Shown here one piece after another: positions 4,239-62,751 of a stretch of DNA of 64,000 nt. Origin of the DNA: Azolla caroliniana (Eukaryota; Plantae; Polypodiophyta); the NCBI GenBank assembly GCA_043228905.1, contig JBHGNT010000020.1, forward strand, positions 2,356,001-2,420,000. Direction: 5' to 3'. A program made the translations under genes and the position numbers. The notes under the pieces were generated by a model. That model had not been told where the DNA came from. It did not search any database and saw only the letters and a list, made by a program, of their open reading frames with translations. Position 1 is the stretch's first letter, and each line of letters starts with the position of its first letter.

Positions 4239-7200
4239 TCATGTGGCATCATCAATAGGTTTATCCATCCATTTGATCTTGAATAGCCGAATCTCTTTAG
4301 AACATAAACGTTTAGTACGAGAATCAAGAATTCGTTCAGGAACATGAGGTTTGTAAGAAAAATCCTCTAATGTTACAAGATCTTGGATTGTGATGGTGTT
4401 ATCACCAGAGCCTAAAAATGGTTTTAGACGACTGACGTGAAAAACAGGATGAATACCAACGTTACGAGGTAAGGCAAGGTGATGAGCAGATGACCCAACT
4501 CGCTTAAGGATTTCAAATGGGCCACAATATCGTGGAGCTAACTTAGCGCACTTGCCCGTAGATAATGACGTAGAATCAGTCGGGACACGCAAAAAAACTT
4601 TTTGACCAATAGTAAATGCACGAGGACGTCTATCCTGATCAGCATAAAATCGAGCACGATCTTGAGCTGTCTTGACATTTTCTTTGGCAATATGCAACAT
4701 TTGGTTCATGTCTTGCAAAAAATTGTGTGTACTGTCTAATGTATCACGATGAATCGTGACATCAACTGGGGCACGTGGCTGAAAACCATACATCAACATA
4801 AAAGGACTATATCCAGTGGATGTATGTTTAGAGCTATTATAGGCAAATTCTAAGATAGGAAGGTATTGCTCCCACTTAGAAGGGGTTTTTGCTACATAAG
4901 CTCGAAGCATGTCCTCAATAATTTGATTAACTCGTTCAGTTTGTCCATCAGACTGAGGATGATCTGCGGAACTCATGCTCAACGTAGTTTCTAGTTTCTT
5001 AAAGACCTGAGTCCAAAAGTCACTAGTAAACTTGGAATCTCGATCACTAACAATATCCATCGGTAATCCATAAAAACGAAATAACTCATCAACAAATTGA
5101 TAAGCCAACTGTTGAGCGGTTACCGTGGTTTTTGTAGGAATAAATCTAGCTAATTTTGTTAGCCTGTCAACGACAACCCATATGGCATCATGACCCCTCT
5201 GTGTACGAGGTAAACTAACAATAAAATCCATCGAGATACTTTCCCATTTATTGTTGGGAATATCTAAGGGATGTAAAAGACCAGCAGCTTTAAGTCGTTC
5301 CGACTTATTAATCTGACATTGTAAGCATTGAGTTACGTATTTATGCACGTCAGAGCGCATCTTAGGCCAGAAAAAAGTACACGAGATGAGAACGAGTGTG
5401 CGTTGTATTCCAGGATGACCAGCAGATGGTGCATCATGACATTCATGAAAAATTTTCTGTTTAACATTTGGTAAATCTGGAACACAGACCTTTCCACTAC
5501 GGTAGAGCAAACCGTTTGTAATGTGAAAGGTCGCCTTCGAGGGTAGGGTGCTAGTATCGGCATCTAAACCAGATTCGGCTTTCGTCCAGTATTTTGAGAA
5601 ATAACTATCATCAAGGTATTTCCCTCGAAGGTGATCTAAAAGATCAGATTTTATTTCCGTGAAGCTAAGCATGTTAACTTCTTTAATGCGACTAAGAGCA
5701 TCAGCAACGGTGTTCATAGAACCCTTGCGATATCGTATGGAAAAATCAAAATCTTGCATAAGGTCAGCCCAACGGCCTTTACGACCAACAAGATCGGGCT
5801 GGTCACAAAAATACTTTAATGATTGATGGTCTGTTGTAACCACAAATTTATTTCCATAGAGATAGTGCCTCCATGTTTTAAGTGCATGTATCACCGCAAA
5901 CAACTCTTTCTCTTGAACCGAATACCGAGATTGAGCAGCATCAAGCTTCTTACTTTCAAAAGCAATAGGGTGACCACCTTGATAAAGAACGGCACCAATA
6001 GCATAATCACTAGCATCGGTTTCAATTGAGAAAGGCTTAGAAGGGTCTGGTAATAGAAGAGTGGGAGCCTGACACACATGCTCCTTGAGTGTCTCAAATG
6101 ATTTGTCAAGTTGTTCATTCCATGAAATTGGTTTGACAGACTTACGTGGATGACCTTTTAAAAGGTCAGTTAATGGCGTAGTCAATTTGGAATAGTTACG
6201 AATTGATTTTCGTAAAAATCCAACAAACCCTAAGAATGATCTAAGTTCACGAATATTACGAGGAATGGGCCAAAGTTTAACCTTTTCAATACGAGAAGGT
6301 TCAATTTCAACGCCATTTTCTGTAATTAAATGACCTAGGTACACAATAGATTTTTGGAAGAAGTCACATTTTGAATGTTTTGCATAGAAAGAGTTGTCAC
6401 GCAACTTTCGCAAAACAAATCGAACATGTTGAACATGATCTTGCAAGGTACGGCTATATATCAAAATATCATCCAAGAAGACGACAACAAAATCACCGAG
6501 TTGATCTCGGAAAACATCATTCATCGCTTGTTGGAATGTGGCTGGAGCATTAGTCAACCCAAATGGCATGACTAAAAACTCATAATGGCCATAGCGCGTA
6601 CGAAAAGCGGTTTTAGGAATATCATCCTCGGCGATGCGAATCTGATGATAACCAGTTCGTAAGTCAATTTTCGTAAAATATCGAGCCCCGTGCAAACGAT
6701 CAATCAAATCATCGGCACGAGGTAATGGATATGCATTCTTAATTGTCATTTTATTCAAACGGCGATAATTGATACACATTCGCCACGAACCTTCCTTCTT
6801 CTTGACTAATAGAACTGGCGCACCCCAAGGTGATTTACTATACCTAATGTGGCCCATACTCAAGTATTCCTTAAGTTGTTTAGCGATCTCATCCTCTTCT
6901 AATCGACTAAGTCGGTAAGGTGGAATGCTCACAGGAGCAGCCCCAGGGATGAGTTCAATTTGATGGTCCACATTACGTTTAGGTGGTAAAGTAAGCGGTA
7001 ATTCAGTAGGAAACACATCTTGAAAATCCTCTAAAATAGAGTCGAGTAATCGTTGCTCAAAATGTGGTAATTGTGTGGCGTCAATATTAAAATAATAAAA
7101 TTGAACCGCAGGATCAATTACACACGAATAAATTAATGAACTAGAATACTCACTTAAAGATTTAGAAGACACAAGTGAATGAGACGGAAGTTTGGAACAT

Positions 7201-8573
7201 TGAATAAAATGTTTACAATTATTAAGTTCAAATGTGATTGAGGGATTAACCCAATCAATGGACAAAGAAGGGTTTTTATTAAAAAACCAAGGATATCCTA
7301 AAATGACATCTGCGGATTGTAATTTCATAACATGAAAGTCAAGCTTCTCCAAATAAGTATCTATTTGAATTGGCAGTTGACAAACAATGCCACTGATGTA
7401 TTGAACGTTTCCATTTGCCATGTGAACTTGATAGATATGATCACTTGCGTTTATGTGGAGCTCCATTTGCTGCACAAAGTGATCATTAAGAAAATTGTGA
7501 GAACTACCGGAATCAAACAAGAAATGTGCTTGTGTTCCATTGATATATCCGACTGCTCGGAGTAAATCATTAGGTCCAAGTAAATGTGAAGGAAAAGTGC
7601 ATTCACATAAACTTAAGTGATTGGTATGAACTTCAACAATATCAAAAGACTCACCTGTGTGACTCGTAGATTTGTCTTGAGGAGGGGTGTTCATTGACTT
7701 CCTCTCAAGACGACGACAGGTATCCTTTGTGTGGCCCCGCTTCTTGCAATATGCACAGAAGAGGTTCGGTTTCTTTGAGTCGCGGTCAAGAGTGTCACTG
7801 GATTGCTTACGTTTCCCAATGAACTTGACATTCGGAGTTTTGGCGAACTCGGGTTTATTGTGGTCTTTCTTGGAAGTCCTAGGGTATCGTAGCACAATGT
7901 TGACGGCTTCCTCGAAAGTTGTGGGGTCCTTGTCATGGACAATCCAATGATAATCCCCATTGGGAATACCATTCAAAAAACAAGCGACAAACCATTTCTC
8001 ACCCGTAAGTCCCGATTTTTGGATCTGGGTCCGAGCGTGATGCACATAATCCTCGAGAGAGGTAAATGGCTTACTAGACAATGTGAGCAAGTGTTGCGCT
8101 TGTTCGGTTTGAGAAGGTGGCTGCAAGAATTGTTTCTTAAAAACATCAACGAAACCTTCCCAAGTTGTGGGTAAGTTTTTTGCGGTCCTTAGGCCACGCC
8201 ACCAAACAGCAGCTCGGCCACCTAACTCACGACCGACATAACCAATTTTTACTGCATCGGGCTTGGGATGAAGCTCAAAGTGAGACTCCCAACGACCAAG
8301 CCAAGTGCTAATAGCCTCCTCGGTTCTTTCTTTCTTATCTCCCTTGAAAGGCGTGACTACGAAGGAAGGTTCACCTTCTTTCTTGGACTCAATAGTTAAT
8401 TCTTGGAATTTCTTTTCCAATGCCATATTGGCCTGTCTCATTTCGGCCAATTGATTCAAGGTAGTAGTGAGCAATTGCTCAATAGTGATCTCAGCTTGTG
8501 TGCGAGATGCGGATTGGGGTTGAGAGGTCTCATTTGGAGAGATCGTTCCAACTGCGTTCAAAACTTGTTCCAT
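4239..8573 (-). CDS. Gag-Pol polyprotein 1444 aa (Gag, CCHC knuckle, PR, RT, RNase H, IN, truncated chromodomain)
   Basis: [14 protein letters not shown]; LFDSGSSH; [10 protein letters not shown]; [10 protein letters not shown]; HDAPSAGH...CLQC, SMDF, SDRD; GPF; [11 protein letters not shown]. Confidence 0.96.
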
Positions 8574-9566
8574 GATGCACGCTGTGGGTATGCAATAAAA
8601 TAAGGAGGTTCAGAAAATACACAAGCAAAATGAATGCTTGAAATTTTGATTGAAAGAACTTTATCCAAGAAAGTATCTCATGTCTTTACCCCTCTAGACA
8701 TATGAGATGTGATTCGAGATCCGATAACTATGGTAACACTATGGTGTTTTAAAAACCATGGGGGAAAACATAGCTAAGATGTATTTCTCGGATCTCTATC
8801 TTGAGTAATCATGGCGGCTCCCCGAGGCTCAACCATGGTTCTTACATCAATGAAATTTCCTAGATAGCCTTATATTAATGCCAACCCATCATGTATTATA
8901 TGGTCGAGAAAGTGTATTACGTGAAAAAACAAGTGCACTCACAAGTAATATTCTAGTCTTGCGAGCAATAAGCAAACGTGATGATAAAATGATAAAATAA
9001 GGCACTACTCATAAGAGTTAAGTAGTGACGAAAACAAGGGTAAAAAAAAAGAACCCATGTGTTACCTACGAAAAAAACAATGTCACAAATAAATGGGAAG
9101 TGCAAGGTATGCACATATACATCCCAATATGATTGTTATAACTTGCACAATTGTGACATAAGCCACAAATTGATACAAGTGATGACGGTGTTGTGCGCAA
9201 AGATGTAATACTCAAATCCATGAGTAAAACATCAATAAGGGAACTCATATGGTTTTACTCGTTTTCTAAGGCTTGATGATAAGAGTTAAACCTAGATGAC
9301 CCGTTGAAAAAAAAATCATTCAACAAGCCACTCCATACGAAAAAATAGTCTACACGTAAAGGTTACATTAAAAATAAACGATGTAAATACTTTATACATG
9401 AAAAGGAAGTGGAAAAAGGAGAGTTAATTGTGGGCGGGTAAATAATAATTACTAGAAAATCATATAAGTGAAACAATACTTATGAAATTAAAATTTAATT
9501 AGAATAATCAACAATTAGGTGTATGGAATCAAACATGCCCTAAGATACGAAACCCTAGGGTAGTTG

Positions 9567-29956: not shown

Positions 29957-30374
29957 TGTCGTGAAGATACGACAAAGATATGTGAACTTGAGGCAGGACC
30001 CCGAGGCCTCTGACCAGAGGATACCAGATTCGTGCGTTTGTGTTTTAAGAATTAACGGAAATGAGAAAGTTTGATAAATTTCATTAGCAAAGAAAAAGAA
30101 AAATTACAATCTATCCCAAGATTGAGATTACAGAAAATTAGGGTTTATTCGAGAGATGGCTTCAATCTCTAAGGAAAATTAGGGTTTATGCGAGAGATGG
30201 CTTCGATCCCTAAGGAAAATTAGGGTTTATGCGAGAGATGGCTTCGATCCCTAAGGAAAATTAGGGTTTATGCGAGAGATGGCTTCGATCCCCAAGAAAA
30301 ATTATGGTTTATGCAAGAGATGACTTCAATTCCTCAAGGAAAATTTGGGTTTATGCGAGAGATGGCTTCGATCC
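29957..30374 (-). repeat. Fragment of a family D-like LTR containing about six 41-bp tandem repeats
   Basis: Terminus TGTCGTGAAGAT as at 60633; unit GAAAATTAGGGTTTATGCGAGAGATGGCTTCGATCCCTAAG at 30133-30374. Confidence 0.75.
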
Positions 30375-30692: not shown

Positions 30693-33600
30693 GGATCGTT
30701 GCATGAGTCGAATGGGAACCGCTGGGGTTTTGGACTAGGAGGAAGAAGAATTTGAGATGAGTCTAGTTATGAATAGATTGTAAGATCAAGAGAAAGAAAC
30801 TTGTGAATCCCACAAGTATAATGTATTTTATTAATCAATATTTAGATAAGAATATGAATTTAGATTGAAAGAGAAGAATATAGAAACCTCATGGATCCCA
30901 CAAGTATAGTTTATTAATCAGTACTTCGAAACATATCCAATTTCCAAAGATTTTCACACCTTGTTACATTATACTCCCCATCCTTATATAGTGATGAGAG
31001 AGTTTTAGCAATCCATGCTTTTTCTCTAAGTATCAACTCCATGCTTTTTCTATCAATAGACTATGCTTTCTCTAACATGCTTTTTCTAAAAGTGATCATG
31101 CGTTTTTTTATGAACTATAATGTTCATACACGCTAGATGTGCATGGTAAGCTTTTTCTTTTATCATGCATTTTCTTCTAACTAAAGCTTTTTTATCTAGA
31201 AAATATACGTGAAATAACGTTTCTATGTGGGATATCTACTTTTTAATACTTATGATGTGTTAGTATAATTGTAAGGCCTTACATTATAAACATGGAGGTA
31301 TAAGGTTCGAATCTTGTCCTATATATTTTAATTTTTCTTTTTTTTTTCTACATATTTATTCAATCGGTTATTTTATATATTTTTCACGTAGTGTACAAAA
31401 TACACTATGACACTCGCCCCCTCCAAACCCGCACATCCTCCGGTATGTGCAGAAGTTGTCGATACTTGTTATTCTCCTTCATCTGTAGTATCCTCAATCT
31501 CTTCCCCTATGTCAATTATTAATTCTAGCCCACGTTCTTCGCTTTTCGTACCTCTGTAACTCTTGTCCGATCGCTCCTTTGTATCGATGTTGTCTAAAGA
31601 TACATATGATTCGGCGTCACTTTGCTTCTTGAAAATCTTCACTCGTTTCCCTGCTACAGGTACCCACATTACTGTCCCATTCAACTCACATAATCAGTAT
31701 GTTCCATTGCCGAATACCTTCCGAACTTCGTATGGTCTGAACCACCATTTAGAAAATTTTCGTATCGAGCTGTGATGATGTTCCAAACTACTGTTGTAGA
31801 CTATCACCCAATCCCCTTCTTCAATCTTCCGTGGTCGTAGAAGGTGCTTTGTGTCGAATCGTTTTTTGTTCCGGAATCATGCTTCTTGTTGTCGGCATAT
31901 CCCTTCCGCTATGTCTTTCGGTCTTCCTTCTAGCTGTTGTATCCGGATTGCTAGTAGTTCTTCTCGGCTCATATCTTCCTTCCATGGTAGCAGTGTCCAT
32001 GTTGCAATTGGGGTTTCCATAGGCATTACTGGAGGTTGTTCGGTCATAAGTTCTGTTGGCATATAACTGGTCACAGAACTATGTGTTGTGCGATCCACCC
32101 ATAGTGCATACGAAAACATTTGTGGCCAAAAATTCACCCTTTTTTCACATGCTTTCGCAAGTGCTTTCACGATTGGACTATGTCCTCATTCGATTTTCCC
32201 GTTTGCTTCTAGATTGTATGCCGTGGTTAAGGTCAACCGAACTCCATGTTTGACGAAGAATTCCCTAACTTTATCGGAATCAAGTTCTCCTCGATTCGCA
32301 ACTACTTGTCCTACGCACCCATACCAACAGAACACTTCTTCCAAGAGAAATTGGCATACTGAAGAACATGTTTACCTCCGTAACCCTCGACATTCTACTT
32401 GGTTCGTTAGATCCTCCCGAGCTAGCACTGTACTTCTTTTGTCCGATCCCTATTGGCATGGCCACGATGTCGACCATCCATTTAAAATTGATTGTCGGTG
32501 AGAATGTCAGATGTAATTCGTCCCGATGTTGTACTCCAGAGTAAATTTGACATTTATTGCAACTTTCCGTGAACTCTGCTACATCCTTATACATATTTTT
32601 CCACCAATATTTTTGTTTGACTTTTGCAAATGTCGCCCATGTTGCCTGATGTCCAGCCCAATCGGATTTGTGAAATTCAGATATTACCTGTTTCTGTTGG
32701 TCCTTTGTGCCGACTACCCAGAGTGATATGCCATCCTGTCTTTTTGGCTCTCTCCAGATCAATCCATTGTTCAAGAAGAACTTGCGAACTTGTCGTTTCT
32801 TCCGTCGAATCTTGACTCTATTTTTTTTTTTTGTCCGATGATTCCTCTATTTCTTGCAACACTTTCCTGATTAATAATCTTTCTCCCTCATATTCTTCTT
32901 CCCAGAACTCCCGAATTACGTTCACCCGGCATATGTGCTTTGAAGTAAAGTAATGTTCGGAAACTTCTTCATTATCCGATTCGGCTACTTCGTCTCCGAA
33001 CCATGCCCTTGATAATATATCCACTACCTTGTTGTCTTTTCTAGAGATACGTCAGATGTCTGGATTAAGTGATTTTACATATGCAATCCATCTTACAATA
33101 GCCACATTCGGTACCGTGCAACATCACATCATCCCTAATATCGGAAGACAATCTGTTTCTATCACTACTTCGACTCTGATCAAATAATCTCGATCTGATT
33201 TTATTGCTGACACGACTCCCCATAGCTCTCTTTTAACTTGTGCATACCCATGTTGCCTTTCATTGAGAATCTTTGCTCCGAATCGAATTGGATAACGTGA
33301 AAATCCATTTCTATCACTACTTCGGCTCTGATCAAATAATCTTGATCTGATTTTATTGCTGACATGACTCCCCATAGCTCTCTTTTAACTTGTGCATACC
33401 CATGTTGCCTTTCATTGAGAATCTTTGCTCCGAATCGAATTGGATAACGTGAACCATCCGAGTCAACTTGGTTGATGACACATCCGATCCCGATTGGACG
33501 TGTATCAACCGTTACTATGATCGATCGGTCATAATTCAGTTTCTCAAGTGCTTCTGCCCTCCGTAGTATTTTCTTGAGCTTCTTCATGGCTTTGGTATGT

Positions 33601-35287
33601 TCCAGTCTCCATTCAAACTTCTTACCCTTCCGCAACAAGTGATAGAGCGGGTCCGCAATGTGTGCATAGTGTGGAATCCATATGTGATAGAATACACATG
33701 CACCAAGAAATCTACGGACTTCAGATTGAGACTCACATATTTCTTTCATAGCTTAAAACGCATCAATCTTGATTGGTGATGGTCTTTGGCCGTAGGGCCT
33801 ACATAGAGGTCCAGCTACCAATATCTCTTCTTCTCTGAATGCCGATTTCTCTCCGGATAGTGTTAAGTACACATCTTCTAACTTCTGTAGCACTTTCTCG
33901 CAACTGCAAATATGGTCAACCACAAACTTTCGGCATCCCCGATCATCCATAGTCTCATCCTTTTCTTCCAGCACACATCCTTTTATTGGAATGTCATCGT
34001 TATCTTTGGAATGTAGTCGCGGAGCACCTTGTTCATTGCATTCATCATATGTGCGATCGAGTTCGTGGCTCCTTGTGGAAGCGTACACATTCGGACTAAT
34101 CCTATCGGTGTTCGCATTGTAGTGATGTCCCGACTATCCATAGCTAATTGGAATTGGTCATATCCAGAGTATAGGTCTATGATAGAGTATATCACACAAC
34201 CAACAAATGCTTTTGCAAATTCATCCACTATAGGACCGACTCCAGAGTTCCAGATCGTGACGTTGTTCACCAGTTGTAAATCTTGAATCAACCGGAGTGA
34301 CCCATTCTTTTTCGGAACCATAAACCATCGATTTGAGTATGGAGCGTTTGATGGGTCTAGAATCCCCATCGCCACCTTTTCTTTGAGCAATTCAATGATT
34401 TTCGGAATATGTGCCCGTGGCACTGGAATTGGCTTCAAGTTCCACGACACATGATCAATCGTGAAGATCACCATCGGCTGCACTATCTTTGGATCAACAC
34501 ACCCTATCTCTTTTGGTGTGAATATGAATGCTTTTCCATGTTGGTCCAACATCTCACAGAATCGTTCTTCTTCATTCTTTAAGAGGAACCCGCCTGCACC
34601 AATCTAGAGTTTCTTTCGGGTCTCATCCGTAAATGTATGTCCAATATCCATGGACTTCTAAAGTGCCAGATCTTCCAAGACTTCTTTCATCTTTTGTTCA
34701 CTATTGGCGGGTAACGATCCCACAGATGGTTTCACCTTCTTTTCCACGGTCTTATATTTCGTACATACCATTGTTTCTTCTTTGCGGGGCGCATCCGGCC
34801 CCATTTCCGCAATGATCTTGTACATCTCTACCGATTCCATCGGAACTACCCGGTCTCCGTGGTGATTCTCTTCCTCGAGCTCTTCAAGCCATTGTAGTGT
34901 GCTTTCGTAAAACACTTCTTCGATTACTCCAGTGATTTCTTCGTCTTCTTTATAATTGATGCAAACCGTAGCTCATCCTGCATCTTCCGGAATTCTTTTC
35001 TCATTACTCTGGTCACGGCCATGTACGTAGATGCCCCATCTGGACTAATCCGCACTTGTTTCGCTCCGAGAGTTTCCTTCCTATGTGGGGTATCAGGGCT
35101 TCTCGGACTATAACTTCCCCACTCCGCAACAGTCCGCTTTAAAAATCCATTTTTGTTTGGGACAATATCTCTCTCTTGTTCCTTTCGTGATTTGATGGCA
35201 CAATTAGGAATTGGACGGTTTTCCCTCCGTTTTGGCTTCGAATCCGTGCAAAAGCCGCTCCACTATTGAGCACCTTTGTTTCCATTC
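30693..35287 (-). mobile_element. Non-chromoviral Ty3/Gypsy family C: 3' LTR (30693-31412), IN, RNase H, RT and end of PR; degenerate, 5' part missing
   Basis: IDLYSGYDQFQL, TVDTRPIGIG, IETDCLPILG, KWMVDIVAMP; PPT next to 31412; LTR homologous to 62643-63384. Confidence 0.9.
31261..31318 (+). promoter_or_regulatory. tRNA-like A/B-box cassette in LTR C, followed by T-runs
   Basis: TAGTATAATTG (31261) ... GGTTCGAATC (31304); oligo-T at 31326-31347. Confidence 0.6.
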
Positions 35288-38200
35288 TGTTGGTAGGTTA
35301 GGCCAACGTATGAAAGGGGAGCCGTTTTTGGGATAAAGGGAGTTGTAATTAGAATTAATTATTATAATTATAAGATCGGACAGACGGACGGACCCGGAAT
35401 CGGTATGTCGATCCGGATCCGGACCGGTTCATAGCCGGTTGCCGGTTGGCACCGATTTGTAACACAACCGGATACCGATAAAAGGATTCAGATACAATTT
35501 AACTGACGACGGATAATTAATAGAGAAGTGTTGTTATTTTCCTATCTTGTTTATCCTGTCATTTCCATTTTGTGCTTAATGACGTTGATCCTACGCGTGT
35601 AACTAATCGATCCGGATAACATTCGGAGAGGATCAGTTCAGTGTTACGGTCTTCCCATTCCTTAATGTACTACCCCTTTGGTGAAGTGTTCCGGAAGGAC
35701 ACCTTGTGTTAGTGGCTTGTCTAGCCCAGGATTAACACAATTTTGGCGACCACGATTCCTGTAGAAAGCAGTGAACAACGGGGGAATGGATGACTAGACC
35801 AATGAACGACGGGCTAGTTGCCGAACAAGTAAGAAGACTAACCGAGAGACTGCAGAAGCGGGAGGCTTACCAACAGGCGGCGTAGGAAATCTGTGTGGAT
35901 CGGTCCTTTTGTAGGGTGATTCGGCAGGTTGTGGAGGAGTCACTCCGATTGCAACAGAACCACCACTCGGATGAAGGAAGTAGTCTGAGCAGTTAGCAAG
36001 AAGCGGAGTCCTTTCTGCAGACACTTGCCGCAAGAGATGGCGATTCGGAAGCGTTCTCCACCATCAAATCAGATTCGGACGACGAACACAACGTCCAATC
36101 AAATTATCGTAGTAGCCATGATACCCCAGACGGCCCGGAAGACGACGAGTCGGACCACATACCGACACTGGAGCCAGAGACAACAAAACCGGTGCCGCAT
36201 TGTTACACGCGTGCGTGGAGAACGAGGCGGGGCCATTGGGGCCTTGGACTGAGAAACTACTGAATGAGAAGAGGGGGAGGAAACTACCGATGTACTTCGC
36301 ACGCGTACAGACACACAGATTCACAGGAGTTGCAACTAACTTTGAACAACGGAGACAGAACGAATGTATACGTATATATAAATCAAGGAGTTACAACCGG
36401 CAAGCCGACAAGTGATAGACTCCAACGCCTGCACACACACACACAAAACGCGAGATGGAGACTCTACCGAAAGCACTCGGGCGTTCCGCGGAGCAGAGTC
36501 AGCCTCCCGACAACCTGCACAGAACGTCTTGAGTGGCAAGCTCAACTGGAGCCAGATAGGCTGAATAAGCCTGAGCCGGCAAGCGAGACGGATCGGTAAG
36601 CTGTGAGCAAACGAGCCAGCAAGCAACAGAGCCGGTGAGCTGGGGAGCCGGTTAGCCGGATCCGATCAGTAACCGGAAGCCTAGTATTAGTGTAGACTAC
36701 TAGGCAATTATAGTCTTGTAGTAAGTGTCAGATGCTCGTGTGAGCATTGAAGTACGCGGTACTTCTGTCAGTCCCACGAGGACTTGTATAAATAATGCTA
36801 CTGAGCATAGTTTTAGGTACAGAGTGTTTTTATTGTTTTTGAATATAGCCTTGAAGTTCTCCTCTCTCTGTCTTTCCCGTGTACTCTGTGTATTCCCTAC
36901 CTTCTCTATTTTCTAACGCTTCTGATGCTTCCGCAAGTAATCGTTTACATGGTATCAGAGCGCGAGGGTTGAGAACCTCCTCTGCAACCGACAAACTCTT
37001 GAAAGCAGACCCTAACAGGTCGTAAAACAGAAGACAGAGAAGTGATGGATAGAGGGATGGCTAGCTCGCTCCCTATGGAGAAACTCGACAGATCTAACTA
37101 TGCATCTTGGTCGTATAAGATGCACCAGTACCTGCTTGGGCATGGCTACTGGAGTTTCGTCAAAGGAGCCAACGAAACAACACCTAATGCGGCACATAAG
37201 GAGTTCCCAGTGTGGGAACAATCGGCAAGCAGAGTGATGTACTGCTTCGCGTCCAGTGTCGGAGACCAGTTGCTGAGCCACATCCGAAACGCCAAGATGC
37301 CGAAGGAGGCTTGGGGAAACCTGAAGAAGGTTTTCGCCGCGAGCACTACAGCCCGGAAGCTGCAACTCCGACAGGAGTTAAGCAATGTCCAACAGAAGGA
37401 CATGTCGGTGGCGGATTACACGGCCCAGATCAAAGAGATCTGTGACTCGCTTGCCTCTATCAACGTTACCGTAGAGGAAGACGAGATGGTACAGGTCTGT
37501 CTTGGGGGCCTGGCGTCTAAGTTCAGAGCGTTCCGAACGGTGGTATGTACAAGGGAGAAAACACCGTCATTTTTCGACTTACAGTCGATGCTCCTTATAG
37601 AGGAGAACCACGCTAGTGCGTCAACTAGCGCACCCATTGACAGCCGGATGTTGTACACGGAAGCGGATCGGTCTTGTGGGCGTGGTGGACGAGGCGGGTC
37701 GGCACGCAATGGAGGCGGCTGGCAAGAGCAAGAACGAAGGCACAGAGAATGTGTCGACAACAGTTTTGCGACTTCCACAAGCAGGGGGAGTCAAGGCGGT
37801 GCCGGAGGCCGGCAAGACAAATCTGCAACGGAATGTTGGTACTGTGGCAAAAAGGGCCACAGAGAAAGCGAGTGCTGGAGAAAACGTGTCGATTCGAACA
37901 AATCCGGATCCGGCAAGGCCGGCAAGGATGGCCGGCAAAGCTCGCACTACGTGAAGGGATCGAGAGGATCCAAGAACGGTAACGGGTGAGCCTTGGTGAT
38001 GAAGCACGAGGCGAACTTGATGAAGAAGACAACTTCCAAATCGGAGGAAGTGTGGTATGTTGATTCCGGTGCGTCGAACCACATGACTAACCACAAAGAG
38101 TGGTTCTCCTTTTTAGAGAAACCGGATCAACCAGGAGTAGTCGAAACCAGAGACGACACTCCTCACCCAATTGTGCATGTCGGAGAAGTCCCTTTGAGCC

Positions 38201-52152: not shown

Positions 52153-54117
52153 CCTTTTGATGACCACTAAGGCGACCCCCCTTTGTAAATGGAGTCGAAG
52201 AATGATACGTGTCGATGCAAGCCATAGAGACTAAGTGCAAGAAATCACAAGTTTCTTATATCTTTCTTTCAATCTAAATATTGATTAATAAAATATATTA
52301 TACTTGTGGGATTCACAAGTTTATAATAATCTATTCATAATTAAAATCGTCTCAAATTCTTCCTCTTCCTAGTCCAAAACCCCAGCGGTTCCCACCCGAC
52401 TCACGCAACGATCCGACGCCGAAAGGCACGACACAAGTGGTGAACCCGACGTGAATACTGGTGGCAAGGAGATGGAGAATCAACAAGAAGCGATGAATAT
52501 GATGATGATGATGATTAAGCGGATGCAAGAAGAGCAACGCACAATGTCGGAGATGAAATCGACAGTAACACGGCTTGTGCAAAGAAACGGGAATTCGACA
52601 TAAAGGATGTGTCACGCTATCTATGCGAATACAAGGCCGAGATGATGCGATGTGGGATACCGGAAGGATTGCAAGTGACATCCTTCAATCGAGTAGTCAC
52701 AGATGAGTTACAAGAGAGAATCCACAGAATAGGGCAACAAAACCCGACATGGGAGTCCTTTGAAGAAGCTTTACGAGAGGCATATGATTTCAAGAGATCG
52801 AAGGGACAAGATCGGCGAGTATTCGACAAATGGGTGGCATCGGAGAAGACCTATCGGAGTGCAACACAAGTATTCCTAGAATTCGAGCATCGTTTTGCTA
52901 GACTCTCGAAGCGGGAACAAAGATTGGTGGGGGAGGATAAAGTCCTAATGTTTGTAAAATCGATCGATCGAAAAGAAAGGATGGACATCGGGATCGAGAT
53001 CGAAGATGATGACGGTGCGAACGGTCTTACCGAGGATTGGGCCAAAGTCGAAAGGGTATGCCGGAGACATGATGAGAGGAAGATGAGAATCTTGTCAACG
53101 ACATGGCCGATGAAGGATGGTCGATTGAAGACAAACGATGGAGCCGATATGAAGGCCGAAATACAACATGATGGTGCGACGGAAGAGGGTGTAAAACAAG
53201 CTACCGTCTTTTCTTGCGAAAGAACGACGGCGAAGGATAAGGCCGATAACCCAAGTGTAGAAGAAGATTTCGGAATACAAGTGTCTGAAACATCGGGTGA
53301 AAAAGGGGTAAGCATAATTGATGTTTGCATAATTGATGCAGTGAAACAAAGCAAGGAGGACTTGATTGAGGAGGTCGCCACGAAAGATGACATCGAATCA
53401 AAGGTGGCTATGGACGAATCAATGGCGAATGGCCATATCGAGATTTCCCCACCACTGATTCTAGAGACTCCGGCGATTGCGATCGAAAGGCAACGTGAGA
53501 CCGAAGAGACGGAAGGTGGTGGAGAGAAAACAAAGCTCGAAGCCAATTCATATGACAGAGAGATAGCCAAGAAGGTGGATATGCGTGAAACGACGGAGAA
53601 CGATAATACCGAGGATTCCTGCCCACTAATCCTAGAGACTTCGGCGGTTGTGTCCGAGAAGCAACGTTGTCGTCAAGATCCGTCACTACGCGCGGATCGT
53701 GAGGCGGAACCGCCGGGGTTCTGGACCGGAAGGATTCAAAGTCGGTACAAGCTTTGGCGAGAAAGTTCTTAAGATAGATTGGGAAAGAGAGAAGTTGAGA
53801 TTAAACGATTGAGAGAGATTGATTGAACTTTTATCTTTGGATTTAAGAAACAAGTTACACGATCAATTTGATAACGAATTTCTTCTTCTTAATTTCATAA
53901 CCTAAAAAAACGTGTTTTTTCTCCTCCCCCCTCCTTTTATAGATGCTCTCATGCATATGATGCATGTGAGGGTACAAGACATGCATAAAAAGCATGTTTG
54001 CCATTTGGTGCTTATGTATTACATGTGGTGCATGATAACCATGTCACTCATTTTAGCTCTCATGTATGAGAATTTACATGTAAAAGTACAATGATAGAAA
54101 TATAAATTCAACTAAAT

Positions 54118-54184
54118 GGCATGGCTTAAAGGTAAGCCAATTGACTCCTAACTCGGAGGTGCAAGGTTTGAATCCTTACTTGCC
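54118..54184 (+). promoter_or_regulatory. tRNA-like A/B-box cassette in the 3' LTR of family D
   Basis: TGGCTTAAAGG (54122) ... GGTTTGAATCC (54165). Confidence 0.65.
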
Positions 54185-54887
54185 CTCCTTGTATATGTAT
54201 ATATGTATATATATTTATATATTTATTTATCTAGTCACCGAACGCCGGTTCGTCGGATGTCGTCGATTATCGGTGCCTCGCCGGTTGCCGTCGGATACCG
54301 GTGCCGCCGCCGGATGCCGTCGTCTCAACGACGCTGGATGCCATCACCTCGCCGTCGCCGGATTGCCGTCAGATGCCAGTGTCTCACTGGCGCCAGATGC
54401 CGCCGGATCACCGGCTCCATCACCGATCCAGTTTTGGTTGGCCAAAACCCTTTACGAGTAGCTAGCCCACCTCCACTCTTAGTTCAAGTTACCTTGACCT
54501 CTCTATGCTCCACACATAGACACAAAGATAATATCTTTTGCTCTACCTTATATATGATGAAAGCCGTATTTGTCGTGCCTATGTGGGATATCTCACAATT
54601 TTCTCTTTTCCTTTCACAAACTTTATACCCTCATATCTTGACATTTAGTTGTCCATTTCTCAAGTAATAAAGTGCATTCGAAACCTCCCCTATTTTGTAC
54701 TTAGATATTAAATTTATTTAAAATGTTATCTTCACAATTATTGTATTATGTGATTCATACTCGATTTCGTACGTTTTATGGGATTTTCACACTATTGCCG
54801 AAAATCTTCACGACATCCACCCCCACCAAACCGCACGTCCTCCGGTACGTGCCAAGAAGAGAGAAAGTGAGATTTCGGCTACGGTGA

Positions 54888-57800
54888 TCAATTAGATTCC
54901 TCCATGTCTTCATTTACATCCGCCCTATTATGTTCATCGTCGAGGTGATCGAGGTCAGGATCCTTGTCTTGTCTTTTCTTGAAAATCTTTACTCTTTTTC
55001 CCCCAATGGGTACGGCCAACCTTGATCCGTCTAGTTCTGCAAGGTGGTATGTGGCATTATCGTTGGCACTTGTCACCACATACAACCCTAACCATCTTCT
55101 TGCGAACTTCCTTGTTGTACTGTGTTGATTGTCAAGGGTGCTGTCATAAACCAAAACCCAATCCCCTTCTTCAATCTTCTTGGGACGAAGTCGATGTGTG
55201 TTGTCGAACCGAACTTTGTTCTTTACTCGGGCTGCCTCCATCTTCTTTCGCGCTTTTTCTAAATCTTCAGGTCTTCTTTCAAGTTGCCTTATCCGCACCG
55301 CTAATAACTCTTCTCGGCTTATCTTGTTCTCCCATGGTATCGCTACCCATGAGGCGATCGTCCTTTCGATGGGCATAATCGGCTTTTGTCCATACATAAG
55401 CTCCGTCGGCATATACCCTGTTACCGAGCTATGTGTCGTTCTATCGGCCCACAAGGCATAGGGTAATAGTCGTGGCCAATTCCCGACTCGACCGTTGCAT
55501 GCCCGTACGATGGCTTTAACGATAGGTCCATGCCCTCGCTCGATCTTCCCATTCGCTTCCGGATTGTAGGCAGTCGTGAGGGAGAGCTTCACGCCTAGTC
55601 TTTCGAAGAGCTCTGTCACTTCGTGCGCATCCAACTCCCCTTGGTCGGCCATTATCTTCCCTACACATCCATATCGGCAAACAACCTCTTCAAGCAGAAA
55701 TTTGCAAACGGCTGAAGTCGTCTTATTTGTCAAGGCTCGTCCTTCCACTTGATTTGTCAAGTCTTCCCTTGCCAGCGCTAAGTACTTCATTTGTCCCACT
55801 CCCATTGGCATCGAGACCAGATCCACCATCCATTTGAAGTGTATGGTGAGTGGGTATGTCGGCTGTAACTCATCACGATGACGTATATTTGAATATATTT
55901 GGCAAGTTTCGCATGTGGACACGAAATGGAGTACATCTTTGTACATGCTTGGCCACCAGTACTTCTCCTTCAACTTTTCGAACATCGCCCATGTTCCTCT
56001 ATGACCTACCCAAGCACTCTCGTGGAATTCGGTCATCAGCGTCTCTTGCTCTTCTTTCTTTACCACCACTCGACGTGGTATTCCTGTCCTTCTTTTTGGA
56101 TGTCGCCAAAGGAATCCTCCCTTCAAGAAGTATCAGTAAGCTTACTTTCGGATTCGTAGGGCCTCCTCCTTTGTCAACGAAGCATATGTCGTCAATGTTC
56201 TTAGGAATCTACCGATGAGTAACCACTCTCCTTCGTACTCGTTCTCGTTGAAGGCGTGGAGGGTTTGCGTGTCCTGGTCTTCTGCCGATAATCGAGCCAT
56301 CTTGAAGAAGTCGAGGGCGACATCTTCATCTTCCAAAACCATGTTACTTCCATTTGAAAATCTTGCCCTCAACAGCATGTCAGCCATGGTGTTCTTCTTC
56401 CCTGCAATGTGACGGATCTCTAGGTTTAAAGACTTGATGTAGGCGATCCACCTTAGCATAGCAAGATCTGGGGTTGCACATCCCGAGACCATTCCGAGAA
56501 TTGGGAGACAATCTGTCTCTATTATCACTTATGACCCGATCAAGTAATCTTTGTCCGTCTTCACTACCGACACAATACCCCAAAGTTCCCGCTTGACTTG
56601 GGCATATCTTTGTTTCCGTTCGCTGAGAACCTTTGCTCTGAACCGGACGACATATCGCGCATTATCTTCACCTTCTTGATTGATGACCCACCCGATTCCG
56701 GTTGGGCTCGTATCTACGGTCACGTAAATTCGTTTTCCTTCGGCATAGTCGACCTTCCTTAGTGTCGGAGCTTCAACAAGCAGTTTCTTTAATCTTCGCA
56801 TCGCATTTGTGTGCTCATCTCGCCATTCGAACTTCATTCTTTTCTTTAGTAGTCCATATAACGGTTCGGCGACATGAGCGTAGTGAGGAATCCATATATG
56901 ATAAAACGCGCACGCTCCAAGTAACCTTCGAACCTCCGTTTGGTTTTCGCATTCTTCTTTCATGTCTTGGATTGCATTCACTTTGGATGGCGAGGGCTTC
57001 CGGCCATATGCTCCACACAAGTGACCTACCACCAAGATCTCTGGTTGCCCAAATGCGGATTTTTCTCCCGAAAATGTCAAATTCGCATCTTCGAGCCTTT
57101 GAAGCACCTTCTCGCAATCTTTCATATGATCCGCAACGAACTTTCTACAACCTTCCTTATCTTTCGATTCATCTTTCTCCTCATCCGAACATCCTTTTAT
57201 TGGAATATCATCCAAGAATGGCATCGTGATGTCCAGGATGCAATCCTTCAAGACTTTATTCATGGCGTTCACCATATGAGCCACCGAGCTCGTTGCGCCT
57301 TGGGGTAAGGTACACATCTGCACAAGCCCGATCGGAGTCCTCATGGTTGTAATGTCTCGACTGTCGATCACCAATTGGAATTGGTCATATCCGGAGTAGA
57401 GATCGCCAATGGAGTAGATGGACCGGCCCGCAAACGCTTCGGCAAATTCATCCACGCTCAGACCGATTCTGGCATTTCGAATTGTCACCTTGTTGACGGG
57501 TTGAAGATCTTGGATGAATCACAATGATCCATTCTTCTTCGGCACCGTGAACTACCTATTGGAATAAGGAGCATTCGACGGTTCTAGAATTCCCATACTC
57601 ACCTTCTCCTTTAAGAGCTCGATCAGCTTCGGAAGGTGTGCTCTCGGAACGGGTATCGGTTTCAAATTCCAAGGCACATGAGGCACCGTGAAGATCACCA
57701 TCGGCTCTATAACCTTTGGGTCGGCGCATCCGATTTCTTGTGGGAAGAATGTGAAAGCCTTCCCATGTCTCTCAAGCATATCGCGAAACATTCGCTCCTC

Positions 57801-58379
57801 TTCAGGGAGAAGGAAATCCTCCTCTCCAACCCGTAGTTTCCCCTTCGTCTCTTTGGTGAAGACATGGCCTATCTTCTTCGGATCTCTTAAGCTTGGATCG
57901 TTAGCGACTTCCTTCATCTTTTGCCAACTATCTTCCGGTAGCGGAGCCACAACTGGCTTGATCTTTTTATCCATCGTTTTATATTTCGTGTTGATGTCAG
58001 CTTCCTTCATCGAGATGCCACGACGGTATTCATCGATGATAGCGTACATGTTGGAGTTAATTGAAATCACGCGTTGGTTGTGAAGATAGCTCAAGTCCAC
58101 GACGTCCTCGATTTCGCCGATGGTGTCGTTAAATGAGGCTTCTTCCATAATATGAGTCACGAACTCTCCTTCTTCTATTATGTTTTCTTCTTTCAGCATC
58201 TTCTTGAATTCTTGTATCCGGTGCTTGTGCTTCTTGTCGGGTAGTACTAGTTTACATGCGCCACTAGGTGTGACACATGTTGCTTCTCCTCGCAATCCAC
58301 GCACTCTTCTTTGTTGTGGGGTCTTGTGATTGCTCGGACTATTTGTGCCCCATGCTTCAATAGTCCGCTCTAAAAATCC
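54888..58379 (-). pseudogene. RT-RNase H-integrase ORF of family D (-1 frame, disrupted)
   Basis: GDLYSGYDQFQL, PFLDDIPIKG, TVDTSPTGIG, HESAWVGH...CETC, WMVDLV, ADQGELD, NGKIERGH. Confidence 0.9.
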
Positions 58380-60571
58380 GAGGATTCGCCTCCGAGACTA
58401 TCTCGATTCCTTTCATGATTGGCTCGCACCGTTAGGAATTGGACCGATCTTTATTTGTCAAGACTCTTTATTCGTGCGAAGGCTGCTCCATTATTGAACA
58501 CTTTGGTCTCCATCCGAGATGATGTGATATAAGGTTGCCCTAGGATGACAGGATGCGTCGCCGATTCTTGTACGAAGAAGTGTTGTTCCATCTCCACATC
58601 CCCGATCGTGACTTTGATATTGGGACAAGCTCCGTACAAGTCCTCCGTAGACTTTGTTGCCGCGCGAATCTTCCATCTATAGTTTGTATTGATTGGCCAT
58701 CTTCCTTTTTTGTAGAAGTCAGTTGACATGAGGTTGATCTCCGAGCCGTGGTCGATCAAGGCTACCACGGTCTCTTTCTTCTCCCCGATCTTCACCGGCG
58801 TCTCCGTTGTCGCTCGTGCCCAATGAGGTCAAGTATAGTGGTTGTCCACCATATCTTCATCGACTTCGTCTCTTGCCATCGTTAAGGCATTCGTTTTTGC
58901 TTTTTGCGGCTTCTCTTCTTCCTCGTCTGATTGTTGTCTCTTTCTCTTTACAAGATCCACGATCGTGTCATGGAACTCCTTCTTCGTAATGCCAAGCAAT
59001 TCCCTCAAGGACAAAGTTACGTGGCTATCAAGAACTCGTTCTTCGAGAATCTTCTTTAGGTCCATCGTCTGCTCTATGTCCGACCTTAGCTTATAGGTAG
59101 GTATAGTCCTTGTCCTCCGAGCGGGGTCTTCGACACCAACCTTCACGGGCCGAACCGTTTCTTCAACTCGTATGCTCGGATCCCCTTTTCGGCTTAATTC
59201 TCGTTCCTCCGTTTGTAAAGGTCGACTCGTCTCCGCATCGTCTTCTTTTTCGCGTTCCTTGTTTCATGTCTTTTTGATGGCCCTTACTCTTCTATTCTCT
59301 TTCTCTTTTCTTCGACGAACACCTCGTGGTTGTCGCACATCACCTCTGCGAGTATGGTGTTGTCGTCCACCGGATCCGACCACCCAATTATGCTTTGCAC
59401 GTTTCGGTCCGCAAGCTCTACCTCGTTCGATGTGACTTTTCCCTTCTTCTCATATTCGAGAACGGAAGTCCAAAACTTTGCTCCCGCTCTAGCAGCTTCA
59501 ATCTTGTCTTTCCCGACTCTTATTCCGGCCGACGCAACATAGTGCATCGCATCCACATGAGTCGCATCGGCATCCTCCATAGATTTCTTCATTCCTCCTC
59601 TTCCGAAATTCACCCGTAGGGGTCTTCTAGTCTCGCTTGAGCAGATCATGTTGTCCTCTATGTATACGATATTTTGTCGAATCGCCTCTCGAAGGCTCGC
59701 ACAATCCCTTCTCATGTGGTCCATGTTATCGCACCACATGCATCTAAAGGGTTCTTTTCCTTTAGGGCCCCAACGATTCATGTTGGCTAGCGTGACCTTC
59801 TCAAACTTCTTCGCTAACTCTTCAATGATGTCGTCATCAATCTTCTTTTCTTCCACGTTACTTTGTCTTGGCGGCTCAGCTACTTTCGGCGGTCTTGCTT
59901 TCTCCGTGGTAGTTGATCCCGTCAAGTCGGTGTCATCAACCCATTGGCGACGCTTGTCGAGCCTATTGCATGCCCGCTTCACCGCGATCCAGTCCGCTAC
60001 GAGCCCATTTGCTTGAGTATCATCTTCGAGAGAGTCCCCAACTCCCATCTATCCTTTATGTCCACGGCCTTCAAGAAGTACAAAGTCTTGTCCTCTTCAA
60101 GCAACACTTGGTCCGTATTGGGGAGACGACTAAACATCTGGTCGAATTCGTCGTACACCCTCGAGATGCTCATCTTCTTATTCTTCTTCTCTATCCACTT
60201 CATCAGGGCATGTCGAGTCATCCTCGTTGAGTCTTCAGTCACAAACTCCGCTAGTATAGTTTCTCGAACTTGGACTATGTTGTCTTACCTTCTTGAAGCT
60301 CGATGACGCGTCTTTGAATGTTGTTGGCGACAACTCTCTTGAAGCTTGCGATTTGACGTGCCTCGGACACGTCCCTCTAATTCATCTCCCTTCTATATGC
60401 ATCAAGGAACTTCGTAATGTTCCTTCCATCGAATTGGCTCTCAAGCTCTACAACACGATCGACAGCCTTCTCCACACTCACGTCGTTGGCCCGAGATCTC
60501 ATCGTTTGCTCGACGATTAGCATCATCCTTTCAAGCTCTCCCGCTTGGTTGCTTGAGGACGCCATCTCCAA
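58370..60571 (-). pseudogene. gag-protease ORF of family D (disrupted)
   Basis: FDGRNITKFL; RCMWCDNMDHMRRDC; LIDHGSEINLM; frame ends ...GGESSDF*. Confidence 0.85.
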
Positions 60572-61094
60572 GTATTAATCTCAACTTGATCCTTCCTACC
60601 GCCTCTTTCACGTCGGGTTCACCACTTAATTATGTCGTGAAGATCCGTCACTACGCGCGGATCGTGAGGCGGAACCGCCAGGGTTCTGGACCGGAAGGAT
60701 TCAAAGTCGGTACAAGCTTTGGCACAAGCTTTGGCGAGAAAGTTCTTAAGATAGATTAGGAAAGAGAGAAGTTGAGATTAAACGATTGAGAGAGATTGAT
60801 TGAACTTTTATCATTGGATTTAAGAAACAAGTTACACGATCAATTTGATAACGAATTTCTTCTTCTTAATTTCATAACCTAAAAAAACGTGTTTTTTCTC
60901 CTCCCCCCTCCTTTTATAGATGCTCTCATGCATATGATGCATGTGAGGGTACAAGACATGCATAAAATGCATGTTTGCCATTTGGCGCTTATGTATTACA
61001 TGTGGTGCATGATAACCATGTCACTCATTTTAGCTCTCATGTATGAGAATTTACATGTAAAAGTATAATGATAGAAATATAAATTCAACTAAAT

Positions 61095-61161
61095 GGCATG
61101 GCTTAATGGTAAGCCAATTGACTCCTAACTCAGAGGTGCAAGGTTCGAATCCTTATTTGCC
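61095..61161 (+). promoter_or_regulatory. tRNA-like A/B-box cassette in the 5' LTR of family D
   Basis: TGGCTTAATGG (61099), D-stem GGCTT/AAGCC, GGTTCGAATCC (61142), T-stem AAGG/CCTT. Confidence 0.75.
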
Positions 61162-62751
61162 ATCCTTGTATATGTATATATGTATATATATTTATATATT
61201 TATTTATCTAGTCACCAGACGCCGGTTCGTCGGATGCCATCGGTTACCGGTGCCTCGCCGGTTGCCGTCGGATACCGGTGCCGCCGCCTCGCCGTCGGAT
61301 ATCGGTGTCTCACTGGCACCGAATCACCGGCTCCATCGCCGGTCCGGTTTTGGTTGGCCAAAACCCTTTATGAGTAGCTAGCCCACCTCTACTCTTAGTT
61401 CAAGTTACCTTGACCTCTCTATGCTCCACACATAGACACAAAGATAATATCTTTTGCTCTACCTTATATATGATAAAAGCCGTATTTGTCGTGCCTATGT
61501 GGGATATCTCACAATTTTCTCTTTTCCTTTCACAAACTTTATACCCTCATATCTTGACATTTAGTTGTTTGTTTCTCGTGTAATAAAGTGCATTCGAAAC
61601 CTCCCCTATTTTGTACTTAGATATTAAATTTATTTAAAATGTTATCTTCACAATTATTGTATTATGTGATTCATACTCGATTTCGTACGTTTTATGGGAT
61701 TTTCACACTATTGTCGAAAATCTTCACGACAACGTGAGACCGGAGAGACGGGAGGTGGCGGCAAGAAAGGTAAAGTCGGAAGCCGGTTCGGATGGAAGAT
61801 GATCCGGACGGAATTCCGATCCGAAAGAAAGTTGACCTGAAAAGGAGTCGACTCGATCAAAACCAATCGACCGAGTCCGATTCGGCCGAACGCGAATACG
61901 GATGGAAGTCGACCTAGTCGAAAGATGATCGGACGAGACCGATCCGGAAAGAAGCTAATCCGACTTAGTTGGACGTTGAACCGGTCGAGCCAATGAAAAC
62001 GAGGAAAAGAAAGCCAACCGAAACCGAAACCGAGAGATCGAAACCGACCCGTAAGGGGGCGAAATCGGTAAAAACTGATCAACCGAGTCCGATTCGGCCG
62101 AATACGAATCCGATCAGAAGCCGATCGGACGAGACCGATCCAGAAAAAATTCAAGGTTGATGAAGAGGCAAGGAAAAGACACTACCACGAATGACAAGGG
62201 CCAAGCGGATTTGAAGGATATTATTAACGATAAGATCTCAACAAAGAAGAATGGCTCTAACGGGAAGAATGTAAACACTAATGCGAGATTCTATGAAGAG
62301 AGAGAACAAAGAATATGGTGGATCGGATGGCGACAATGGTTCGGGTGATAAGAATGGATATGTTCAAAATGGAGAGACAACGCCGACATAGCAAGAGAAA
62401 CATAGGGTACTACAAGTAAAGAAGAATTATGAGGGCCGGTAACCGGAGACCGGACAGAGCCAACAACCGAACAAAACTGGAAACCGAGCGGAGTCGGCAA
62501 CCAAAAACCGGAGACCAAACGGGGCCGGCAACCAAAAATGGCAGGCGACGAAACCAACCATGCGGAGAACGAACGGACGAGATTAACAATCACCGACAAC
62601 TTCGGCACATACCGGAGGATGTGTGGGTTCGGAGGGGGCGAGTGTCATAGTGTATTTCGTACACTACGTGGAAATAATATAAAATAACCGATTGAATAAA
62701 TATGAAGAAAAAAAAGAAGAAGAAAATATCAAAATAAGCATTACATGCATA

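Follow-up and report, generated by a model that had tools for sequence, protein, structure and literature searches.

Predicted programmed -1 frameshifting at the protease/reverse transcriptase boundary of a Phygy-like Ty3/gypsy retrotransposon family: a conserved slippery heptamer followed by a predicted H-type pseudoknot

The window, i.e. the whole stretch of 64,000 nucleotides of Azolla caroliniana DNA that has been analysed, contains an 8,064-bp Ty3/gypsy LTR retrotransposon with TG...CA ends, located on the minus strand at positions 53668-61731; its assignment to Ty3/gypsy is based on the LTRs, the target duplication and the domain order GAG-PR-RT-RH-INT. The 5' LTR (60633..61731, minus strand) and the 3' LTR (53668..54815, minus strand) are separated by a K2P distance of 0.035, and the element is bordered by the target-site duplication ACGT at 53664-53667 and 61732-61735. 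The primer-binding site (60608..60624, minus strand), a candidate match to tRNA-Trp, is located 8 nt inside from the 5' LTR; among the 80 loci of the family that are compared below, 37 share its first 12 nt. The coding region is divided between two frames: the Gag-PR reading frame (58373..60565, minus strand), broken in this copy, with a protease domain at approximately 58828-58400 that carries a D-H-G active-site motif, and the -1 frame (54888..58379, minus strand), in which a linker of about 130 codons is followed by the reverse transcriptase (RT), the RNase H and the integrase, with five internal stops in this copy.

From the site where the two frames meet, the minus strand reads TCG GAT TTT TAG AG CGGACTATT GAAGCA TGGGG CACA AATAGTCCG, followed by 13 nt and CCCCA. 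The slippery heptamer G_GAU_UUU (GGATTTT; 58373..58379, minus strand) is located in the Gag-PR frame, read as TCG GAT TTT TAG, with the Gag-PR stop codon TAG (58370..58372, minus strand) directly 3' of it, and a spacer of 5 nt separates the heptamer from stem 1, whose 5' strand CGGACTATT (58359..58367, minus strand) and 3' strand AATAGTCCG (58335..58343, minus strand) have been assigned by fold and covariation. Within the loop of stem 1 lies TGGGG (58348..58352, minus strand), the 5' strand of stem 2, whose 3' strand is CCCCA (58317..58321, minus strand), both assigned by family pairing tests; the A-rich loop of 13 nt between the 3' strands of the two stems (58322..58334, minus strand) is the variable part of the cassette. 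A re-reading of the sequence has found the heptamer, the stop, the spacer, stem 1, the loop and the downstream CCCCA where the initial annotation had placed them. The -1 frame reads GFLERTIEAWGTNSP at the site and is open from stop to stop at 58397-57552 (minus strand), which agrees with the earlier claim that it runs open into a pre-RT ORF at 57552-58304; the start of that ORF at 58304 is merely a GTG.

The hairpin of the window copy (43 nt folded) has a folding energy of -15.9 kcal/mol (z -5.2) and beats 200 of 200 shuffles. The pairing of the loop TGGGG with CCCCA, also proposed by the initial annotation, is within chance in the window copy alone (5 bp, tail shuffle p 0.11), and the support for stem 2 therefore comes from the comparison of the family, where this pairing covaries. 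Among 9,256 windows drawn at random from the same loci, about 5 have both stems at the family median strength, and an Rfam search with the cassette has given no real match. A further hairpin of 11 bp is present in the predicted fold just 3' of the cassette, at 58280-58254 (minus strand).

The initial annotation had treated the signal of this copy without noting its decay. Stops occur in the protease frame at 58831-58829 and 58453-58451, upstream of the site, the frame breaks in gag, and the RT frame has stops at 57554, 57521, 56531, 56144 and 56135; because of the upstream stops and the frame breaks, ribosomes would not reach the site, which cannot work here, and the window copy is dead, preserving nothing but the signal. 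A second family member (31622-35300, minus strand), which is diverged, cut off inside the protease and marked by frame changes, carries the same cassette intact at 35085..35148 (minus strand). Next to the studied element, an open frame of 417 codons is located at 52519-53772 (plus strand), which shares 33% identity with the family Gag over the stretch 52594-53115, and the studied element seems to have been inserted into this older relative on the opposite strand. Elsewhere in the window, another Ty3/gypsy element (4239-8609, minus strand) consists of one unbroken frame of 1,456 codons, with no gag/pol frame break; its flanking repeats are identical across 300 nt, and it is therefore young. A tandem array with a period of 41 nt (30092-30351) contains TTAGGGTTT, presumably a telomere-like motif.

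The Pfam protease match of the domain that precedes the site (E 5e-4) is under the Pfam cut-off, and for this reason the domain was folded by structure prediction. The predicted fold (pLDDT 84) has Ddi1 and retroviral proteases as its top matches (E 1.6e-6, probability 1.0), and on this model the domain is a retropepsin, in agreement with the earlier placement of the site after the protease. At the level of sequence, a PDB search with alignment A1 has given no match, and a PDB search with alignment A4 has given nine weak retropepsin matches (E 0.19-0.65). The D-H-G motif at 58754-58746 (minus strand) aligns with the D-T/S-G of retropepsins and is present, rather than D-S/T-G, in 159 of the 188 motif matches of alignment A4; some relatives retain D-S-G or D-T-G, and in the divergent protease representatives with these motifs DF, NF or GF is likewise located at the end or close to it.

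The layout of the frames has been compared in 80 loci, the best 80 of 158, chosen on protease similarity alone; three of them end before the stop, 15 have no RT match and 62 contain both the protease and RT. In 61 of these 62 loci, the RT occupies the -1 frame; the opposite arrangement, protease and RT in one frame, which the initial annotation had named as the finding that would speak against it, occurs in a single locus (L075) that is broken, with stops between the two domains. An in-frame slippery heptamer is present in all 61 loci with a -1 layout, located at the stop or at most 15 nt from it (for L043, the heptamer search was extended beyond a premature stop): G_GAU_UUU in 54, G_GAU_UUC in 5, and G_GUU_UUC and G_GGU_UUU in 1 each. 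No stop interrupts the -1 frame between the heptamer and the RT in 60 of these 61 loci, and across the 61 the distance from the end of the protease to the heptamer is 44-89 nt. That the motif is conserved, as had been claimed, is also seen in the 77 loci with a scorable stop, 72 of which have an in-frame heptamer (G_GAU_UUY in 69); the other five have no heptamer by the search pattern, and none of the five has a downstream RT.

Gag and the protease share one frame, which ends at the heptamer or at most 5 codons from it. The stop follows the heptamer directly in 67 of the 74 sites (TAG 28, TAA 27, TGA 12), and in 26 of the 74 sites no fewer than 600 open codons precede the site and no fewer than 1,000 follow it. 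G_GAT_TTY occurs in frame at only 4 of the 18,956 other Gag-PR codon positions; nucleotide conservation is at most 15/25 before the heptamer, as opposed to 20-25/25 within it, among 25 representatives that were chosen for having the heptamer. These loci are redundant: most are assembled contigs with neighbouring accession numbers, which may be collapsed repeat copies, and they comprise 51 distinct cassettes, 25 of them under 85% identity. An 81st locus (L081, 1113-1192), found via RT alone, has an identical layout; its contig is filed under a cyanobacterial genome assembly, and the plant-type retroelement on it, in which the heptamer is unchanged and stem 1 is longer, is probably there through assembly contamination. 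The closest named matches are from Physcomitrium, Riccia and Adiantum, which by sequence similarity places relatives of the family in mosses, liverworts and ferns. The Atlas lists look-alikes in Basidiomycota and Mucoromycota, the last protein search for fungal relatives has returned plant names only, and the scan of viral contigs with the protease and Pol alignments has given no match.

At the protein level, 120 of the 313 protease-side matches and 120 of the 144 Pol-side matches are listed. Of the 120 listed protease matches, 58 have DF as their last residues and a single one contains RT; 91 of those listed have no species name, 86 of which end in xF* or in xF followed by 1-5 residues, and the RT motif is found in 0 of the 91. 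The tail after the protease varies between 23 and 44 residues, yet its end is conserved at xF. The protease is located in the same chain in 30 of the 120 listed Pol matches, all of them Riccia sorocarpa gene models, and several Physcomitrium gene models likewise bridge the protease/RT junction (bridging models of the two genera: P0001, P0070, P0071, P0073, P0083, P0086, P0142, P0145 and P0151). The linkers of the bridging models have 52-152 residues, with joints that differ, and the DNA loci have 142-186 codons; the linker figures cover those of the 37 fused models in which both anchors could be placed, and three values of 180 among the distances are search artefacts. To judge from these sequences, the bridging models are likely the product of predicted introns that span the frame change.

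Copies in the host have been compared in four high-copy runs, in which the junction is deeply covered by contigs that were filtered at 85% identity. Indels at or above 2% are absent between 58270 and 58420 in these runs, and the frame offset is thus the norm of the family, not a private indel. Variants at or above 10% inside the cassette are confined to the last loop; variants in the heptamer and the stems stay below 10% and are transitions at CpG. One further run, presumably of RNA, has yielded a single contig of 191 nt, which speaks neither for nor against expression.

The structure downstream of the heptamer has been compared in 49 distinct cassettes, aligned without gaps, and in 25 representatives under 85% identity; alignment A2 omits L012 and L068, which are too short, and L069 and L075, which are broken. 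In this alignment of the junction, a check that the initial annotation had proposed, both stems of the predicted H-type pseudoknot show compensatory changes. In stem 1, changes on both sides are seen at 8 of the 10 pairs, and 85.9% of the cells of the 49 cassettes are paired; with relatedness uncorrected, its covariation score is reached by 0 of 500 shuffles, and its partners in register score 0.30, as against 0.08-0.14 for slid partners. Each of the 8 pairs of its core holds in 22-25 of the 25 diverse representatives. In 48 of the 49 cassettes, 4-7 nt, mostly 5-6 nt, separate the heptamer from the start of stem 1; the stimulatory 3' structure of -1 frameshift sites is located about 5-9 nt downstream of the heptamer. 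Overall, the geometry consists of a spacer of 5-6 nt, a stem 1 of 8-10 bp, a stem 2 of 4-8 bp and a last loop of mostly 10-16 nt.

At fixed columns, stem 2 is only 56.7% paired, because the last loop varies in length, and a register-free test has therefore been used: loops score 15.4 with their own tails and 13.1 with other tails, a difference that is reached in 0 of 100,000 permutations (relatedness uncorrected). For the eight loops that lack GGGG, the score is 14.9 with their own tails, as opposed to 9.9 with tails of the GGGG class, and in a protein tree of 26 rows such variants are spread over five separate branches or more. The compensatory pairs on separate branches are GCGAGA/TCTCGC, CAAGG/CCTTG, ACAGGG/CCCTGT, GCAGGGA/TCCTTGC and GGGACA/TGTCCC.

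An in-frame heptamer, an open -1 frame downstream and a 3' structure at the right distance are the components of a programmed -1 cassette, and all three are found here. We consider it likely, with a probability of about 0.9, that in intact Phygy-like members the conserved slippery site and the predicted H-type pseudoknot drive programmed -1 frameshifting from Gag-PR into RT-RNase H-integrase, a reading whose strong support comes from comparison. Programmed -1 frameshifting had been put forward by the initial annotation, and the frames of 61 of the 62 loci, the 26 of 74 sites with long open frames on both sides and the covariation of the stems speak in its favour, while the shift of the ribosome, its rate and the Gag-PR:Gag-PR-Pol ratio are what we infer from them. 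According to this model, the structure would pause the ribosome while GAU occupies the P site and UUU the A site, and both tRNAs would re-pair in tandem, from GAU UUU to GGA UUU; most ribosomes would end at the adjacent stop and a minority would go on into Pol, giving abundant Gag-PR and rare Gag-PR-RT-RH-IN, with the protease being made one-to-one with the capsid. The observed variants G_GGU_UUU and G_GAU_UUC preserve the tandem-slip pattern, and both G_GAU_UUU and G_GGU_UUU function in wheat-germ extract in the case of pea enation mosaic virus, as described in excerpts of PMC4737148. The mechanism is textbook -1 frameshifting; what is unusual is its position, in a lineage for which the literature searched has given no description of it.

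It is also conceivable, if rather improbable, that frameshifting is real and that its stimulator is the stem-1 hairpin together with the adjacent stop, stem 2 being absent or irrelevant. Stem 1 is strong by itself (median z -3.3 in the 25 representatives), stem 2, with its 4-8 bp, is weak per sequence (p<=0.05 in only 19 of the 49 cassettes, median 0.086), and in umbraviruses this heptamer works together with a bulged stem-loop and a stop close by (excerpts of PMC4737148); however, a hairpin alone does not account for the compensatory stem-2 pairs on separate branches, nor for the loop residue G31, which is invariant in 25 of the 25 representatives.

We regard it as very unlikely that Pol is reached via splicing, as in Ogre, with the conserved motif serving splicing or RNA packaging. 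The Riccia and Physcomitrium models do join PR to RT through shortened linkers, the sequence TTTTTAG looks acceptor-like, and an intron at the same boundary is proven in Ogre (PMC6317226, in part); but the joints differ between gene models of one family, 39 of the 74 sites have TAA or TGA as the triplet that follows the heptamer, so that the would-be acceptor AG is missing in over half of them, no GT is conserved at or above 60% upstream of the stop, and the -1 frame, open from the heptamer onwards in 60 of 61 loci, leaves no stop-rich spacer. The production of Pol through a start codon of its own or through a sub-genomic RNA, which would suit the poorly conserved linker before the RT, where gene callers put a Met, is highly improbable: the first ATG of the -1 frame occurs anywhere from codon 3 to codon 111, and a separate start would leave unexplained why the -1 frame has stayed open as far back as the heptamer and closes 1-12 codons before it (60 of 74 sites). 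Polymerase slippage, by which one base added on the T-run (five consecutive T in most members) would open the RT frame, can be given next to no credence, given that members with GGATTTC, or with GGATTTT followed by C, have just three or four T, that the GG before the T-run is retained and that the downstream RNA structure is conserved at ribosome distance. Three other candidates have been rejected: a chance motif; a copy-specific indel, on the evidence of the four runs; and stop readthrough, because the RT is not in frame 0.

Control of the Gag:Pol ratio in plant LTR elements is known mostly via splicing. The cassette is compact and backed by covariation, and its many natural variants make it directly assayable. 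Intact Phygy-like copies would look "frameshifted" to pipelines, and moss and liverwort annotations appear to bridge them with predicted introns. More tentatively, a Ty3/gypsy clade of mosses, liverworts and ferns may have independently evolved the strategy of the alpharetroviruses, in which the protease is made one-to-one with the capsid and Pol is rationed by a pseudoknot-dependent -1 shift, with the change from D-S/T-G to D-H-G possibly damping the excess of protease; on this reading, no -1 frameshift pseudoknot would have been described before in a plant retrotransposon.

The heptamer of Rous sarcoma virus is A_AAU_UUA, different from the one described here, and the studied element is a plant Ty3/gypsy element in which env has not been seen. 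The two are alike in having Gag and the protease in one frame, followed by a -1 shift into Pol (the "0/-1" layout, as given in excerpts of PMC1224870), and in having a pseudoknot as the stimulator, with a shift of about 5% in the virus (PMC5009743, in part); this likeness is probably due to convergence. The umbraviruses and dianthoviruses, e.g. pea enation mosaic virus 2, share the heptamer G_GAU_UUU, a stop at or near the site and plant ribosomes, but rely on a bulged stem-loop that pairs over a long range with the 3' end, as opposed to the local two-stem structure predicted here (excerpts of PMC4737148).

Within the plant elements, the target duplication and the length of the studied element fit the Phygy lineage (Neumann et al. 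2019, PMC6317226): Phygy has a 4-bp NCGN target duplication, here ACGT on both sides, and a length of 7,656-9,968 bp, which includes 8,064 bp, and named relatives of our family are found in Physcomitrium patens. A chromodomain and an archaeal RNase H are absent from Phygy, and a Pfam search of the studied element has given no chromodomain match. The primer-binding site of Phygy is that of tRNA-Trp, for which the site of the studied element is a candidate. In contrast with the Phygy of that study, a liverwort and a fern are also among the sources of the relatives in the present comparison. The coding layout of Phygy is listed as ND in the supplementary table of Neumann et al. (PMC6317226), an entry that the present layout would fill. 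The overlapping frames in that table, those of Tcn1, Selgy and SIRE, are all located between GAG and PROT, and none is listed for a plant lineage at the PROT/RT boundary (PMC6317226), a reading of the table on which the element lists and sequences in other supplements may bear. According to the part of Atkins et al. 2016 (PMC5009743) that was available, Gao et al. 2003 found only +1 shifts among plant elements with separate gag and pol frames; splicing provides the sole plant examples in the accessible part of a 2025 review, and frameshifting is unmentioned in the accessible parts of PMC7466625 and PMC6911290. In the searchable portion of the full-text literature, from which subscription journals are largely missing, we have found no published description of a -1 cassette in plant retrotransposons.

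The closest plant parallels are Ogre and Retand of the Tat clade, whose coding region is split at the same GAG-PROT / RT-RH-INT boundary (PMC6317226), with the difference that the spacer in Ogre is an intron and that Retand has a single in-frame stop (PMC6317226). Together with the programmed -1 shift proposed here, plants would thus have three solutions at the same protease/RT boundary: an intron in Ogre, a stop in Retand and a frameshift in the present family.
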